From assembly GCF_009931435.1 (NCBI RefSeq), contig NZ_CP043414.1: a stretch of DNA of 64,000 bases. One strand, 5' to 3'. This document shows, piece by piece, positions 26,246 to 44,208 of the stretch (position 1 is the stretch's first letter; the number at the start of each line of letters is the position of its first letter). This DNA is from Escherichia coli. GTDB lineage: Bacteria; Pseudomonadota; Gammaproteobacteria; Enterobacterales; Enterobacteriaceae. The position numbers and the translations under genes were made by a program. The notes beneath the pieces were generated by a model. That model was not told the DNA's origin. It saw only the letters and a list, made by a program, of their open reading frames with translations, and ran no database searches.

Positions 26246-27256
26246 TTAGATATGGGTAACGATTTCTTTAATCAGCGGCGGTCCTTTAAAAATAAAACCA
26301 GAATAAATTTGCACCAGTGAGGCCCCCGCAGCAATCTTTTCACGCGCAGCGATAACCGAGTCAATGCCGCCAACACCGATGATCGGTAAGCGACCGTTTA
26401 ATTCCTGAGACAAACGGCGAATAATTTCGGTGCTTTTTAACTGTAGCGGACGACCACTTAAGCCACCGGTTTGATCACAATTTTTCATTCCCTGAACCAG
26501 AGAACGATCGAGCGTGGTATTGGTTGCAATAACGCCATCAATATTATGGCGAACTAAACTATCGGCAACCTGGATCAATTCTTCTTCAGAAAGATCCGGC
26601 GCGATCTTCACGGCGATCGGCACATATTTATGGTGCATCGCTTGCAAATCATTTTGCTTATTTTTAATCGCGGTTAAGAGATCATCCAGCGCTTCGCCAT
26701 ATTGCAGTGTGCGTAATCCTGGGGTATTCGGCGATGAAATATTGATGGCGATATATCCCGCATAGGCATAGATTTTTTCCATACAAATCAGATAGTCATC
26801 TTTACCCTGCTCCACCGGCGTATCTTTATTTTTGCCGATATTAATCCCCAGAACACCATCGTAATGAGCTTTTTTTACGTTCTCAACGAGGTTATCAACG
26901 CCGAGATTATTAAAGCCCATACGGTTGATCAAACCTTCGGCATCTACCAGACGAAAGAGACGCGGCTTGTCATTACCTGGCTGTGGACGTGGCGTGACGG
27001 TACCGATCTCGATAGATCCAAACCCCATCGCGCCTAACGCGTCAATGCACTCCCCGTCTTTATCAAGACCGGCTGCCAGACCAAGCGGATTTTTAAACGT
27101 CAGGCCCATGCAGTTAACAGGTTTCGCAGGCACTTTCTGCCGCACCAGTGCTTCAAACGGTGTTCCTGTAATACGGCGTAATTGCTGAAAAGTAAACTCA
27201 TGAGCGCGCTCTGGATCGAGCTGGAAAAGGGCTTTACGAACGAAGGGGTAGTACAT
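26246..27256 (-). CDS. pyrD: dihydroorotate dehydrogenase (quinone)
   Basis: 336 aa from [21 protein letters not shown]...; the track ORF has a 9-aa extension. Confidence 0.95.
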
Positions 27257-27492
27257 GAACTCTCCTGGATTCCCGGTGTGCAAACCGGGGGCGTATTATG
27301 TGCGAGTTCGGACCAAAAGGGAATTGACCTACGGCAATAAATAGCAAACGTTTTCTTATTGCGCTTTTTTTATGCTTTTTTTGGCTTTGCTTCGTCAGAT
27401 AAATCATTTCGACTCGCGGACGCCCTCTGTCAGACTGACCAAATTGTTATCAATTTTAACAAAACAAGAACAATTGGTTATAAGGAGAGAGT

Positions 27493-31729: not shown

Positions 31730-31925
31730 ATGCCGGATGTGGCGCACAAAAACAGCGGTTTCAACGGATTGTAGGCCTGATAAGACGCGTCAAGCGTCGC
31801 ATCAGGCATTTGGGCACGGCTGCCGGATGCGGCGTGAACGCCTTATCCAGCCTACAAAACCAGCATTTTCAACGGACTTGTAGGCCTGATAAGACGCGTC
31901 AAGCGTCGCATCCGGCATTTGGGCT
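31730..31925. repeat. REP/BIME cluster: three REP palindromes in alternating orientation, with an about 55-bp imperfect direct repeat
   Basis: taggcctgataagacgcgtcaagcgtcgcatcaggca (31771-31807), gccggatgcggcgtgaacgccttatccagcctac (31821-31854), and a second gcctgataagacgcgtcaagcgtcgcatccggc copy (31879-31914). Confidence 0.85.
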
Positions 31926-40663: not shown

Positions 40664-40690
40664 AAGCCCGCTGAAAAGCGGGCTTTTTTA
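40664..40690. terminator. terminator between convergent aspC and gloC
   Basis: Hairpin aagcccgc-tgaaaa-gcgggctt followed by ttttta. Confidence 0.75.
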
Positions 40691-40697
40691 TACGTCT

Positions 40698-41345
40698 TTA
40701 CCAGACGGGCATTTCGTCTTGCAGGAAGGGATTATGCAGGCGTTCGTAACCAAGAGTAGATAATGGTCCGTGACCCGGAATAAATGTCACGTCATCCCCC
40801 AGGGGCAGCAATTTATCTTTGATTGAAGAAATCAGTTGATTATGATCGCCACGCGGGAAGTCACTGCGCCCTACTCCGCCTTTGAAAATAACATCGCCAG
40901 AAATCAGCAGTTTTGCCCGATCATCAAAAAACACCACATGACCCGGCGTATGACCAGGGCAATGCAACACCTGTAAAGTCACATTCCCTATGCTGATGGT
41001 GTCTCCTTCGTTCAGCCAACGATCTGGCGTCAGCGGCTGGCACTCTTCCAGACCAAACATACGACTTTGCGCAGGCAAGCCTTGTAGCCAGAACTCATCT
41101 TCTTTTTCCGGGCCAAAAACCGGCACGCCGTAATGTTGCGCCAGTTCCGCCGCTGCGCCAACGTGGTCCAGATGACCATGAGTCAGCAGGATCTGCATCA
41201 GTGTCAGGCCGCTGGCATCAACTTCCTGTTTGATTTTTTCCGCATCGCCGCCAGGATCGACCAGTGCGGCCAGACGGGTTTGTTCACACCAGATCAATGA
41301 ACAGTTCTGGGAGAATGCGGTGACCGGAATAATACGATAGTTCAT
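40698..41345 (-). CDS. gloC: metallo-beta-lactamase-fold hydroxyacylglutathione hydrolase (glyoxalase II paralog)
   Basis: 215-aa ORF with an HxHxDH motif (THGHLDHVG); recognised as YcbL/GloC. Confidence 0.9.
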
Positions 41346-41371
41346 ACTGCCCCTGTTTCGTTAAGCGATTG

Positions 41372-41920
41372 CTACCAGTGCCGTGCTGGCCCGGTATCAA
41401 TATGCACAAAGTTACTACGTGGGTAATATCCTACACCACCTGCGCGCATAGATAACGCGGCTTTGCGAATATTGCTTAACGCGATACCTTCAATATGGAA
41501 ATCCATCGCCTGCCCTTTCGTGTGATAGCTTTTCTTCGCTACTCCACGGCTGCGGGCACGTAGTTCATTGTTGGTATCAATGGAGCGATAACCGGAAATG
41601 AGTTGCACCGGTTTGCGGGTGCCTAACAACCCTTGCAGGCGATACAACTGATCGAATAATCCTGGGTCGATGGACTTTATTTTGTTCGCGCGGTAATCGC
41701 GGAAAAAATGGTTAAGTTTTGCCAATTCTTCCTGAATATAGCCTCTGCCATCGAAAAACTCCGCTTTGATTGACTCTCCGGTATGGAGATTATTGAGTGT
41801 CAAAATACGCGGGCGTGGGGTAGAGAGTGTTGCAAACGCCGGGGTCGGCAGGATGGCGGCACCGAGTGCAACGCCACCAAGCGCCAGCAGTTTGCGGCGA
41901 TTAGCGTCGAATTTGTCCAT
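41372..41920 (-). CDS. mepK: peptidoglycan L,D-endopeptidase (M15 family), Tat-exported
   Basis: 182 aa from MDKFDANRRKLLALGGVALGAAI... with a twin-arginine signal; recognised as YcbK/MepK. Confidence 0.9.
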   Translation of the reverse strand: MDKFDANRRKLLALGGVALGAAILPTPAFATLSTPRPRILTLNNLHTGESIKAEFFDGRGYIQEELAKLNHFFRDYRANKIKSIDPGLFDQLYRLQGLLGTRKPVQLISGYRSIDTNNELRARSRGVAKKSYHTKGQAMDFHIEGIALSNIRKAALSMRAGGVGYYPRSNFVHIDTGPARHW

Positions 41921-42100
41921 GATAATCAAGTCTACAGGTCAATGTTATCGTTTATATGCACTTCTGGCGCACAAGAGGCACCTTAACCGCCCGTAAAGCA
42001 GACGTCAAGATGACTCAACCCCAGCAGTGACGGGGGCTGCAGAGAAGCGCCCCCGATCATGCTAATTATTACGACAACTGATTTCCCCGAACTGCTTCAT

Positions 42101-43948
42101 TTACCTGATTAATTGTTCCGCTTTCGATACGATTTGCGAGCTGGATCGCGCAGGCAGATCATAATTGTAAATATCTGTACGATACTGGGTACGACCATCT
42201 GCACCAACAAAGGCCGTCAGATAGAAGAGATTCACCGGAATCGACTGCCGAATATTGACGTAACGCGTATCGCCCTGCTTCAGCGCATCAGAAATACGTT
42301 TGTCATTCCAGCCTGCATCCTGCAACAGCATATTCGCCAGATCGGAAGCTTTATTCACTCGTACACAGCCTGAGCTCAATGCGCGTGTATCACGCTTGAA
42401 CAGATTATGGTTCGGCGTGTCATGCAAATAAATGGCCTCTGAACTCGGCATATTGAATTTATAGCGCCCCAGCGAGTTCCGTGGGCCTGGAGCCTGCTGG
42501 AAGCGGAACGGTAAATTCGAGGCCGTGATTGTAGACCAGTCAACCTGCCATGGGTCAATCGCTTCTCTGCTGTTCCAGCCGCGCATCACCGTATAGCCAT
42601 GGCTTTCGAGATACCCAGGATCATTGCGCACTTTCGGCAGAATATCTTTGCGTGCCAGAGTTGGTGGTACGTTCCACGGCGGGTTTACCACCACGTTGTT
42701 AAGGGCACTACTCATCATCGGCGTTTTGCGATCGGGGCGACCGACAATGACTCGCGAATCCAGCACCTGATTGCCGTTCTGATAGTAGACCAGCGAATAG
42801 GCCGGAATGTTAACCATGATCCCGGTAGAAAGCTCTGTTGGCAGCAAGCGCAATCGCTGGATGTTGAGTGCCAACACGCCAGCACGCTGGGCGGGCGTTA
42901 CGTTTAACCAGTCACGCGTTGCCGGGCCAATAGCACCATCTGCCCCCAATCCTTGCCATGCCTGAAAACGTTTAACGGCTTCCACCAGTTCATTATCGTA
43001 GGCGGCACGAACGACAGGCGCAGGTTTACTACGAGACGTAGTTTGCTGGTCCATCGGCTTAGTTTCTGCTGTTTCAACAGTAACAGCGGATGGGCTGACT
43101 ACCGCGTCAGTTGGCGTGTCATCGCCAGGTAGAGTAATTTTCGGCCCCCCGTCCAGCATGCCTGTACGCTGCAATATTTCGCGCAACGCCGGTACGTCGT
43201 TACTCCACTGCCCTGGGCGCAACGTTGCTTTGCCGGTCAGTTGGGGCCACGGTTTGGTGTCACTGAGTAAGGCCAGTAACGATTCATGCATCGCCGCATA
43301 TTGCGGATGCTGCGGTGCCAGTCCTGCAACAAACGTCGGCAATTGACCTTTATCCAGCGCCAGCTGCCATTGGTTAATCACCGAGAGCGGCGGCGTGGAA
43401 AGCGCATAAGGTTTACTGCTGTATAGCCAGCGAGTGCCTTTGACCGGAATATTTGCAATGAAATGGAGATAGCCCATCATCGCATCAGAGAGCACCACAT
43501 CGCGTGCCATCCCGTTAATACCAGGATCGGTCAGCAACTCTACCCATTTATTAAACTGCGGCTGGAAACCGGCAATCGCCACCTCTGCCAGCTGTTGCTG
43601 GAAGGCTTTAACAGCATCACGGTTTTCCCACATGGGTTGCATATCGCGTGCGGCATACAACAGTTGAAGCTGGTTAAGATAAACCGGCTTATAGCCTGCA
43701 GGTAATTGAGATTCGATTTGCGTGCGGGCTTTTTCTGCCGCACCTTCAGGCAATGGCTGGATCCCCGCCATTATTGCCGTGACCTGCGCCTGCGGCAGTG
43801 CCTCGCCCTGTTCGCTGACAGCCACCGGGCTGTCGCCAGGGATTACTTCAGGCTCATCGGCCTGAGCATTGAACAGTGGAGCGAATGTTACGGCCACGCA
43901 CAAACTGATTGCCGACAGCCGACGACCACACATCATATTAAGCAACAT
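42101..43948 (-). CDS. ldtD: L,D-transpeptidase LdtD
   Basis: 615-aa ORF with a signal peptide and a YkuD domain with catalytic Cys (LSSGCVRV); recognised as YcbB/LdtD. Confidence 0.93.
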
Positions 43949-44167
43949 CCCTTGCCCCCTGTTTTTATCATACTCTGAATAGCCAGGCTGTTATTTTACG
44001 ACTTGCCTGTACAACGCCAATACTCACGAAAGTATGACGAGCAAGCCTGTTACTCATCAGGCTTATCTTCAGTATATAAACGCCGATACGTTTTTACATA
44101 ACCTAATGTAAAGAAGTTTAAAGAAAAGCGCGCCAGAATGTGGCACTTTTTTAGTGCAGAAACGGAG

Positions 44168-44203
44168 TTTTCAGAAACAGGAAAGGCGGCATCGCTGCCG
44201 CCT
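44168..44203 (-). terminator. probable terminator after mukB
   Basis: Hairpin aggcggc-atcgct-gccgcct just 3' of the mukB stop, with a T-rich tract on the minus strand. Confidence 0.5.
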
Positions 44204-44208
44204 CAATC

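Follow-up and report, generated by a model that had tools for sequence, protein, structure and literature searches.

The ldtD and mepK genes of Escherichia coli: conserved neighbours that are probably transcribed as separate units

In Escherichia coli, the gene for an enzyme that makes the 3-3 crosslinks of peptidoglycan lies next to the gene for an enzyme that cleaves them, which raises the question of whether maker and breaker are expressed together or are controlled separately. We considered this question in a 64,000-nucleotide stretch of E. coli DNA (the window), in which the locus comprises three genes and is bounded by two intrinsic terminators:

44183..44204, minus strand: intrinsic terminator of mukB (9-bp stem, T-rich tail), the upstream limit of the ldtD unit
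42101-43948, minus strand: ldtD (ycbB), 615-aa ORF carrying a Sec-type signal peptide and the domains Scaffold, PG_binding_1 and YkuD
41372-41920 from the ATG, minus strand: mepK (ycbK), ORF of 182 aa, a Tat-exported M15/DUF882 peptidoglycan L,D-endopeptidase with its RR signal in residues 1-30
40698-41345, minus strand: gloC (ycbL), ORF of 215 aa, a hydroxyacylglutathione hydrolase of the metallo-beta-lactamase fold
40664..40685, minus strand: intrinsic terminator 3' of gloC, the end of the cluster, on which aspC converges

The ORF in the program-made list for mepK begins at an upstream TTG (41929) and not at the ATG. The initial annotation, made from the letters of the window, had placed mepK 181 bp after ldtD; the adjacency stands, but 181 is a coordinate difference and the true gap between the ldtD stop and the mepK ATG is 180 nt (41921-42100). 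gloC lies directly downstream of mepK, as had been described, with a gap of 26 nt. The identities of ldtD and mepK, their common strand and the Tat signal were likewise right, as seen from the ORFs, the domain matches and the twin-arginine motif. LdtD matches the YkuD domain PF03734 (E 4.6e-26, 92.6 bits compared with a Pfam gathering score of 23.4) and also Scaffold PF20142 and PG_binding_1 PF01471, a build specific to YcbB. It is a full-length equivalog match to NCBIfam NF007891 (1195 bits, cut-off 425), and its residues 31-615 align with PDB entry 6NTW at 1321 bits. Its catalytic motif LSSGCVRV, read from the translation, contains the Cys of S-x-G-C-(I/V)-R, and a conserved His precedes the motif. 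MepK matches the Peptidase_M15_2/DUF882 domain PF05951 (E 2.8e-61, 206 bits compared with a cut-off of 27) and the NCBIfam MepK equivalog NF053624 (275 bits, cut-off 185). The zinc-ligand motif of LAS/M15 peptidases is S-x-H-x-x-G-x-A-x-D with a distal His, and the MepK translation reads SYHTKGQAMD with a distal VHID (FVHIDTG). The twin-arginine motif DANRRKLLALGG...AFA/T is visible by eye in the translation, and the signal peptide was read as MDKFDANRRKLLALGGVALGAAILPTPAFA/T. Finally, GloC matches Lactamase_B PF00753 (E 8.8e-41, 140 bits) and falls below the GloB equivalog cut-off (111 compared with 200.8); it is therefore a GloB paralogue and not GloB itself.

By the literature on the K-12 protein, LdtD should be a periplasmic cysteine (YkuD) transpeptidase that links two meso-diaminopimelate residues into 3-3 crosslinks, and MepK, also by the literature, should be a zinc M15 endopeptidase that is exported folded via Tat and cuts these crosslinks. 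MepK is a Tat substrate and fails if routed through Sec (PMC8262268). Moreover, deletion of mepK combined with YcbB/LdtD production is lethal, according to Voedts (2021), which cites Chodisetti & Reddy (2019); to this extent the functional pairing of a crosslink maker with the breaker beside it, asserted initially, is borne out. It had also been called established rather than novel, and it is: for the K-12 locus, which is nearly identical, the genes and their functions, the routes of export, the genetic dependence and the start sites have all been published already.

The region in the window is the standard Escherichia ldtD-mepK-gloC locus. In E. coli K-12 MG1655 (ldtD b0925, mepK b0926 and gloC b0927) the gene order, the strand relation and the gaps of 180 and 26 nt match those of the window, with identities of 100% for MepK and 99% for both LdtD and GloC. 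Only three substitutions distinguish the two 180-nt spacers, all of the promoter and terminator elements discussed here are identical and there is no functional difference between the two loci. Among 5426 complete E. coli genomes, the one closest to the window lineage is only 98.8% identical to it over 22 kb, and ldtD and mepK are adjacent in 5421 of the 5426. The order mukB-ldtD-mepK-gloC is found in all 80 Enterobacteriaceae loci with enough flank (80/80), and the spacer between ldtD and mepK measures 167-188 nt in the family loci, or 258-259 nt in Salmonella. Such an arrangement could be devoid of functional meaning, an order simply inherited in a stable core region beside mukFEB. The block from mukB to aspC is collinear in all sampled Enterobacteriaceae, so that the order within the family says little on its own, and three of the seven informative distant MepK homologues have no LDT neighbour. 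In the four others, however, a YcbB-type LDT lies immediately upstream of the MepK homologue (42-56% MepK identity), and this pair recurs in unrelated contexts, amid wholly different flanking genes (M75/DUF1513; spermine synthase/TANGO2; gyrA downstream). The published finding that cells producing YcbB depend genetically on MepK also argues against an adjacency without meaning, which we consider very unlikely. Comparison of gene orders instead indicates that the adjacency is more than chance and that ldtD and mepK are an evolutionarily conserved neighbour pair. DUF882-YkuD fusions were considered as 'Rosetta stone' evidence and rejected, the DUF882 proteins of 540-730 aa having no YkuD domain.

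How are these neighbours transcribed? They could form a single ldtD-mepK-gloC operon, read for the most part from the ldtD promoter, in which maker and breaker would vary together. The common strand and gaps of only 180 and 26 nt favour this reading, as does the gap of just 35 nt between the LDT and MepK homologues in one distant relative. Upstream of ldtD, we located the following elements:

44108..44122, plus strand: CpxR-box-like direct repeat GTAAAGAAGTTTAAA, with one mismatch to GTAAA-N5-GTAAA
44064..44076, minus strand: main ldtD promoter and start (-10 TATACT at 44076-44071, start A at 44064, 116-nt 5' UTR; K-12 v2 position 980154)
43955, minus strand: second ldtD start (G, 7-nt leader; K-12 v2 position 980263)

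The main start has a Cappable-seq RRS of 80.0 (Ettwiller, 2016) and 28 reads (Kim, 2012), and the second start has an RRS of 7.4 and 53 reads in the same two maps, respectively. ldtD is induced by Cpx and envelope stress according to the literature. The CpxR-box-like repeat has its centre some 51 nt ahead of the main start and is not significant alone (seven matches in the window compared with 3.4 expected).

At its other end, ldtD is followed by a hairpin:

42031..42055, minus strand: GC hairpin CGGGGGC-11 nt-GCCCCCG, 3' of ldtD, the conserved ldtD terminator

Since RNAalifold gave no consensus structure for the 72 spacers, we assessed this hairpin by a named-structure test and by per-sequence folding. 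Double-sided (compensatory) changes are found in six of the seven stem pairs across the 72 spacers, and the extended hairpin folds at -26 kcal/mol. Its tail is canonical, with at least five T, in 42 of the 72 sequences, and the U-tract is weak in Escherichia; the Citrobacter or Atlantibacter tails read TATTTCCT and TTTTTACT. Two observations here speak for a single operon: the tail in the window, TCACTGCT, has only three T in eight, and a consensus terminator scan called no canonical terminator between ldtD and mepK. Judged by its letters, the Escherichia hairpin is a leaky-looking terminator, and with this weak U-tract some of the mepK mRNA may be a continuation of the ldtD transcript. The published Term-seq supplement contains no entry or 3' end for ldtD or mepK, and Rfam gave no match to the spacer, even with a threshold of E<=1. 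A short reading frame beyond the ldtD stop (ATGAAGCAG..., which in the window is MKQFGEISCRNN) was rejected, as its length and frame vary across genera (MK or MKKFW followed by a stop; no ATG in Atlantibacter).

Further into the spacer, and within mepK itself, lie the elements from which mepK and gloC would be transcribed:

41980..42008, minus strand: sigma-70-type mepK promoter (-35 TTGACG at 42008-42003, 17-nt spacer, -10 TAAGGT at 41985-41980)
41972, minus strand: mepK start (G, 52-nt leader, 8 nt past the -10; K-12 v2 position 982246)
41954, minus strand: strongest start of the locus (34-nt mepK leader; K-12 v2 position 982264)
41420, minus strand: gloC-proximal start near the end of mepK, inside the gene and 75 nt upstream of the gloC ATG (K-12 v2 position 982798)

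The promoter columns CTTGAC and TA..GT are invariant in the 72 Enterobacteriaceae sequences. The start at 982246 has 80 reads, and its upstream sequence is printed (Kim, 2012). The start at 982264 has a Cappable-seq RRS of 481.8, about sixfold that of the main ldtD start (RRS 80), and the gloC-proximal start has an RRS of 136.5 (Ettwiller, 2016), the start-site strengths referring to one growth condition, mid-log M9 glucose. It should be noted that the main mepK start differs between the two published maps, being 41972 in one (Kim, 2012) and 41954 in the other (Cappable-seq). No recognisable -10 or -35 lies at the proper distance from 41954; by eye, none of the sigma-70, sigma-E, sigma-32, sigma-28 and sigma-54 geometries fits, and the sigma-54-like GG-N10-GC spacing nearby would put the start 3 nt off. 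For ycbK of S. flexneri a PhoP box has been predicted; it overlaps the promoter spacer and was also rejected, as it is not conserved beyond Escherichia.

The independent primary 5' ends of mepK and gloC thus argue against a single operon, as do the conservation and covariation of the hairpin, which is a canonical terminator in most genera. In addition, the sigma-E-induced unit of the literature is ycbK-ycbL and not ycbB-ycbK-ycbL, and no ldtD-mepK operon name was found in the literature searched; the same search gave no mepK-gloC operon name. We consider it improbable that the three genes form one operon, and the co-transcription of ldtD and mepK implied by the initial annotation is not supported as the main mode, in view of the hairpin after ldtD and the separate mepK and gloC starts. 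Mapping of promoters and terminators had been suggested as the check, and the published K-12 start maps agree with the comparative footprint described here. We conclude that ldtD and mepK-gloC, although conserved neighbours, are probably insulated from each other transcriptionally and are not a simple operon. Independent transcription with unrelated regulation had been named as what would speak against the pairing; transcription is indeed largely independent, but the regulation is not 'unrelated', since Cpx and sigma-E are distinct but both envelope-stress systems.

In the insulated arrangement, ldtD would be driven by its own stress-responsive (Cpx) promoter, and its transcription would stop at the conserved hairpin, leaky-looking in Escherichia. 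mepK, with gloC, would be transcribed from its own promoters inside the 180-nt spacer, which would exceed the ldtD promoter several-fold in unstressed cells and are reported to respond to sigma-E. The hydrolase would then be present independently of the synthase and ahead of it, so that 3-3 crosslinks would never be induced without an enzyme opening links for growth. Read-through from ldtD may contribute a coupled component.

Read-through RNA could also permit a long-range translational coupling, in which the end of ldtD pairs with the mepK start and masks it. The last ldtD codons and stop (TAATCAGGT, 42111-42103) would form a helix with ACTTGATTA (41932-41924), which immediately precedes the mepK ATG, and ribosomes completing ldtD would open it. 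mepK has no Shine-Dalgarno sequence, and the 9-nt complementarity joins two spacer blocks that are among the most conserved, with 85% of cells paired across the 72 sequences. This score, however, reflects conservation and not covariation, a double change being seen in only two of the nine pairs, and substitutions are uncompensated in Citrobacter (CCTTAATA), Buttiauxella/Cedecea (CCTGGAC) and Kosakonia (AATTTATTA). Moreover, RNAalifold does not predict the helix, an exact 9-mer complement in a 243-nt stretch has an estimated chance expectation of about 0.1 and the 5' partner lies upstream of where most mepK mRNA starts. We see hardly any likelihood in such coupling, and retain the insulated units.

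The remaining question concerns sigma-E. ycbK-ycbL forms its own sigma-E regulon unit, with inductions of 9.7-fold and 6.6-fold (PMC2731931), and a sigma-E ChIP peak is described in the literature for Salmonella ycbK. A scan of ldtD and the spacer for GGAACTT-16-TCAAA at 75 loci gave no conserved match, and no canonical motif in the spacer. The best match to the consensus, GGAACTC-17-TCAAT within ldtD (42480-42452), was rejected, as it is not conserved outside E. coli. The start of the spacer carries a further element:

42070..42096, minus strand: 'block 1', a promoter-like element AGCAGTT-15 nt-TCGTA just 3' of the ldtD stop
42063, minus strand: weak start (A, 6 nt past the block 1 -10, exactly as predicted; K-12 v2 position 982155)

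The positions G.A.TT and GTC..A of block 1 are at least 90% conserved in the 72 sequences, and the start at 982155 has a Cappable-seq RRS of 3.3 (Ettwiller, 2016). As described by Rhodius et al. (2006), promoters of the sigma-E regulon read GGAACTT-16-TCAAA, with -35 and start separated by 25-28 nt. Block 1 resembles that description in its conserved GTC..A -10, its A start, its 26 nt from -35 to start and its AT-rich upstream stretch; it departs from it in its -35, AGCAGTT without the AAC core, and in a spacer of 15 and not 16 nt. It also differs in lying upstream of a terminator hairpin and in the weakness of its start, and it did not pass a scan with a relaxed sigma-E consensus. We therefore describe block 1 as a candidate sigma-E promoter, with sigma-E-like geometry and a poor -35. 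The sigma-E membership of mepK-gloC is reported; it rests on the literature and not on a canonical promoter motif.

The spacer as a whole, with its constant length, might be a conserved regulatory module and not just a terminator followed by a promoter, combining block 1 as a sigma-E promoter with the hairpin as an attenuator or stabilising stem, and/or the pairing of the mepK start with the ldtD stop. Block 1, at the end of ldtD, would fire 8 nt ahead of the hairpin that terminates ldtD, and this hairpin would serve the stress-induced mepK-gloC transcripts as an attenuator or a 5' stabilising stem; in read-through RNA, the region of the mepK start could base-pair with that of the ldtD stop. 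If true, this module would determine how much breaker of 3-3 crosslinks there is relative to maker under Cpx compared with sigma-E stress. We judge it unlikely and put it forward tentatively.

As a discovery, these results carry little weight. Their useful outcome is a corrected model, in which neighbours found across distant bacteria probably form two insulated units that answer to different envelope-stress regulators, the stronger promoter in unstressed cells being that of the hydrolase. This is pertinent to the tolerance of cells for the switch to 3-3 crosslinks that LdtD drives, to beta-lactam bypass and to the survival of outer-membrane assembly defects, and the conserved spacer elements are targets for studying how the maker/breaker ratio is set.

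Finally, the locus can be compared with known systems. The LdtD of the window has the same three-domain build as the YcbB-type L,D-transpeptidases of known structure (PDB entries 6NTW from E. coli, 7KGN and 7KGM) and shares their catalytic SGCVR motif, with no notable difference. In vanHAX-type clusters, an M15 zinc peptidase is encoded beside an enzyme whose product chemistry it complements; these genes are co-transcribed from one regulated promoter, and the peptidase acts on a competing precursor. Both systems genetically link an M15/LAS-type zinc peptidase to a cell-wall synthesis enzyme. Unlike the vanHAX-type genes, ldtD and mepK have separate promoters and an intervening terminator, and MepK cuts the product of its partner.

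Three minus-strand ORFs were read within 40698-43948 of the window, with gaps of 180 nt between ldtD and mepK (41921-42100) and 26 nt between mepK and gloC:

42101-43948, minus strand: ldtD (ycbB), 615 aa, Scaffold, PG_binding_1 and YkuD domains, LdtD-type equivalog matched over its full length
ATG at 41920, stop at 41372, minus strand: mepK (ycbK), 182 aa, Peptidase_M15_2/DUF882 domain, NCBIfam MepK equivalog match
40698-41345, minus strand: gloC (ycbL), 215 aa, metallo-beta-lactamase fold

In the translations, LdtD shows its catalytic cysteine motif (LSSGCVRV), and MepK both a zinc motif (SYHTKGQAMD...VHID) and a twin-arginine signal (DANRRKLL...AFA|T); MepK is a published Tat substrate that is non-functional when rerouted through Sec (PMC8262268). 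The Escherichia coli K-12 counterparts (b0925, b0926 and b0927, respectively) have spacers of the same lengths, with three base differences in the 180 nt stretch, and their proteins are 100% (MepK) and 99% (LdtD) identical to those of the window. ORFs, domains and K-12 layout thus bear out the initial annotation, which had placed ldtD and mepK side by side on one strand with gloC downstream and had MepK exported by Tat; the 181 bp given for their spacing is a coordinate difference. A PDB sequence search with MepK (41372-41920) detected no relative with a solved structure, the sole match (E 7e-4) being due to chance. In gloC, 41202-41219 (TGTCAGGCCGCTGGCATC) is one mismatch away from a PhoB site described inside the K-12 gene, for which a roadblock role has been proposed (PMC10294691).

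The proposed functional pairing of a crosslink maker with its hydrolase is right and meaningful, as published genetics and comparative data agree. Production of YcbB/LdtD is lethal upon mepK deletion (Voedts et al., 2021, citing Chodisetti & Reddy, 2019), and MepK belongs to the smallest set of endopeptidases that supports growth on 3-3 crosslinks (Voedts et al., 2021). The block is present in 5421 of 5426 complete E. coli genomes, and the order mukB-ldtD-mepK-gloC, with aspC convergent, is found in all 80 Enterobacteriaceae loci with enough flank. Beyond this family, among representatives at 41-56% identity drawn from an exhaustive search, four different neighbourhoods have a YcbB-type transpeptidase (Scaffold, PG_binding_1 and YkuD) encoded immediately upstream of the MepK homologue:

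Neighbourhood 1: the pair, its two genes 35 nt apart, follows mukB
Neighbourhood 2: the pair follows M75/DUF1513 genes
Neighbourhood 3: the pair follows spermine synthase/TANGO2
Neighbourhood 4: the pair precedes gyrA

Three distant contexts have no YcbB-type transpeptidase upstream of the MepK homologue and three further contigs are too short to judge the neighbour, in what is a small sample and not a census. Since the pair survives a change of both flanks, it is a conserved unit and not merely an inherited order.

Across Enterobacteriaceae genera (80 loci compared with the window), LdtD identity is only 69-84%, and its neighbours are far more conserved (MepK 87-98%, MukB C-terminus 93-100%, AspC 89-99%); by these figures the crosslink maker appears to evolve much faster than the breaker. 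Many distant DUF882 homologues (P0148, P0158, P0162, P0165, P0173 and others) are 540-730 aa long; their peptidase domain is N-terminal, and the C-terminal extension (about 450 aa) matches no Pfam family.

We aligned the ldtD-mepK spacer of 72 distinct Enterobacteriaceae sequences. Apart from an insertion of about 80 nt in Salmonella, the spacer varies only between 167 and 188 nt in length, and it contains four conserved blocks, namely the mepK start region (TGTAGACCTGATTATCATGG), which lacks a Shine-Dalgarno sequence, and the following three:

42096-42070, minus strand: block 1, a promoter-like element (AGCAGTT-15 nt-TCGTA) just after the ldtD stop
42055-42031, minus strand: GC hairpin with a co-varying stem, 3' of block 1
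42008-41980, minus strand: sigma-70 promoter TTGACG-17-TAAGGT, upstream of mepK

The only fully invariant noncoding columns are those of the sigma-70 promoter (CTTGAC, 17 nt, TA..GT). In the hairpin, six of the seven stem pairs have changed on both sides (one, for instance, is CG in 32 sequences and GC in 26), the folding energy is about -21 to -26 kcal/mol and the tail holds at least five T in eight in 42 of the 72 sequences, often with an A-run upstream; it is the predicted intrinsic terminator of ldtD. The Escherichia tail (TCACTGCT) has three T only, which is why a consensus terminator scan missed the hairpin, and this weak U-tract makes read-through possible in that genus. We also considered whether the two genes are coupled by pairing of the last ldtD codons and stop (TAATCAGGT) with the bases immediately preceding the mepK ATG, which form their exact complement in most genera (ACCTGATTA) and, in the window (ACTTGATTA), pair with one G.U pair. 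Citrobacter, Buttiauxella/Cedecea and Kosakonia carry uncompensated substitutions, which makes such coupling unlikely.

The published K-12 start sites fit this footprint. Both maps, obtained in M9 glucose by modified 5' RACE at mid-log (Kim et al., 2012) and by Cappable-seq (Ettwiller et al., 2016), use U00096.2 coordinates (the current record minus 777), an offset confirmed by the ldtD, ycbK and ycbL coordinates that Kim et al. (2012) give. The ycbB starts are 980154 (116 nt leader) and 980263 (7 nt leader; Kim et al., 2012); the former, of Cappable-seq strength (RRS) 80.0 (Ettwiller et al., 2016), maps to window 44064, an A 7 nt past TATACT, so the coordinate transfer is valid. The ycbK start 982246 (upstream sequence ...CATCTTGACGTCTGCTTTACGGGCGGTTAAGGTGCCTCTTG; Kim et al., 2012) is window 41972, 8 nt past the invariant -10, as predicted beforehand from the alignment. 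Cappable-seq disagrees by 18 nt, placing it at 982264 (RRS 481.8; window 41954, 34 nt before the ATG; Ettwiller et al., 2016). This strongest published start of the locus, about six-fold stronger than that of ldtD in unstressed cells, lies 26 nt downstream of the invariant -10, with no recognizable -10/-35 at the proper distance. A conserved direct repeat (GTGCGC...GTGCAT) lies between the two positions, and in Salmonella enterica subsp. diarizonae and arizonae (L018 and L027, respectively) the insertion of about 80 nt comes right after (3' of) the site corresponding to the E. coli start at 41954, so that the mepK leader is longer in Salmonella.

The Cappable-seq map further lists 982061 (RRS 7.1) inside ldtD, 982155 (RRS 3.3; window 42063) and 982798 (RRS 136.5; window 41420) inside the 3' end of mepK, 75 nt before gloC (Ettwiller et al., 2016). 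The last is fairly strong, so gloC is not simply the tail of the mepK transcript, and by the two maps ldtD, mepK and gloC each have their own primary 5' end. Together with the terminator hairpin and the promoter proper to mepK, these separate ends leave the operon implied by the initial annotation unsupported: to its question of co-transcription, to be settled by promoter and terminator mapping, the evidence mostly answers no, with minor read-through possible in Escherichia.

Regulation is likewise split in the literature. Cpx and outer-membrane assembly stress induce ldtD; 'ycbK ycbL' (b0926-7) is listed among the sigma-E regulon units, with 9.7-fold and 6.6-fold induction, and Salmonella has a sigma-E ChIP-seq peak at ycbK. 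A CpxR-like repeat (44108-44122), not significant by itself, lies about 51 nt upstream of the main ldtD start. In a motif scan, the canonical sigma-E promoter GGAACTT-16-TCAAA was absent from the spacer. The best consensus match (GGAACTC-17-TCAAT, 42480-42452), inside ldtD, was rejected, as it is not conserved even in a divergent Escherichia or in Salmonella. In block 1, at least 90% of the 72 sequences agree at each of the positions G.A.TT and GTC..A and the sequence between and after is variable, a pattern that would be expected of a promoter. Its -10 bears the sigma-E hallmark GTC..A, its -35 lies 26 nt from the start (25-28 nt for sigma-E; Rhodius), and the weak start A 42063 falls on the base predicted from this geometry before the start list was read. 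Against such a role, the -35 lacks the AAC core and block 1 is upstream of the terminator hairpin. The chances that this candidate is the sigma-E promoter are about even; the hairpin, 8 nt downstream of start 42063, could serve as an attenuator or 5' stem-loop.

In the model best supported by these data, ldtD and mepK are conserved maker/breaker neighbours that are probably transcriptionally insulated: ldtD would be read from a Cpx-responsive promoter up to its terminator, perhaps with minor read-through in Escherichia given the weak U-tract, and mepK(-gloC) from stronger promoters of its own, with sigma-E input in addition. We infer that this arrangement may keep the hydrolase available ahead of synthase induction, which would agree with YcbB production being lethal in cells that lack MepK.

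The lineage of the window is poorly represented among the 5426 complete E. coli genomes: identity to the closest is no more than 98.8% over 22 kb (30000-52000), and a single one reaches at least 99% over the 3.7 kb locus. This lineage may be Shigella or a branch lying deep within Escherichia. Elsewhere in the window, Rfam matches at gathering level are the PyrD leader (27251-27324, minus strand, 97.9 bits) and the nucleoid-associated RNA naRNA4/CssrE (31774-31852, minus strand, 82.2 bits); the window contains no tRNA genes.

Compared with the E. coli K-12 locus, the window holds a near-identical copy. Gene identities, biochemical roles, Tat export, genetic dependence, start sites and stress regulons are already published for K-12, so the ldtD-mepK pairing is real but already known, 'established rather than novel' as first described. 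The cross-family spacer footprint and the small synteny sample are the only additions here, and they leave the K-12 picture unchanged.
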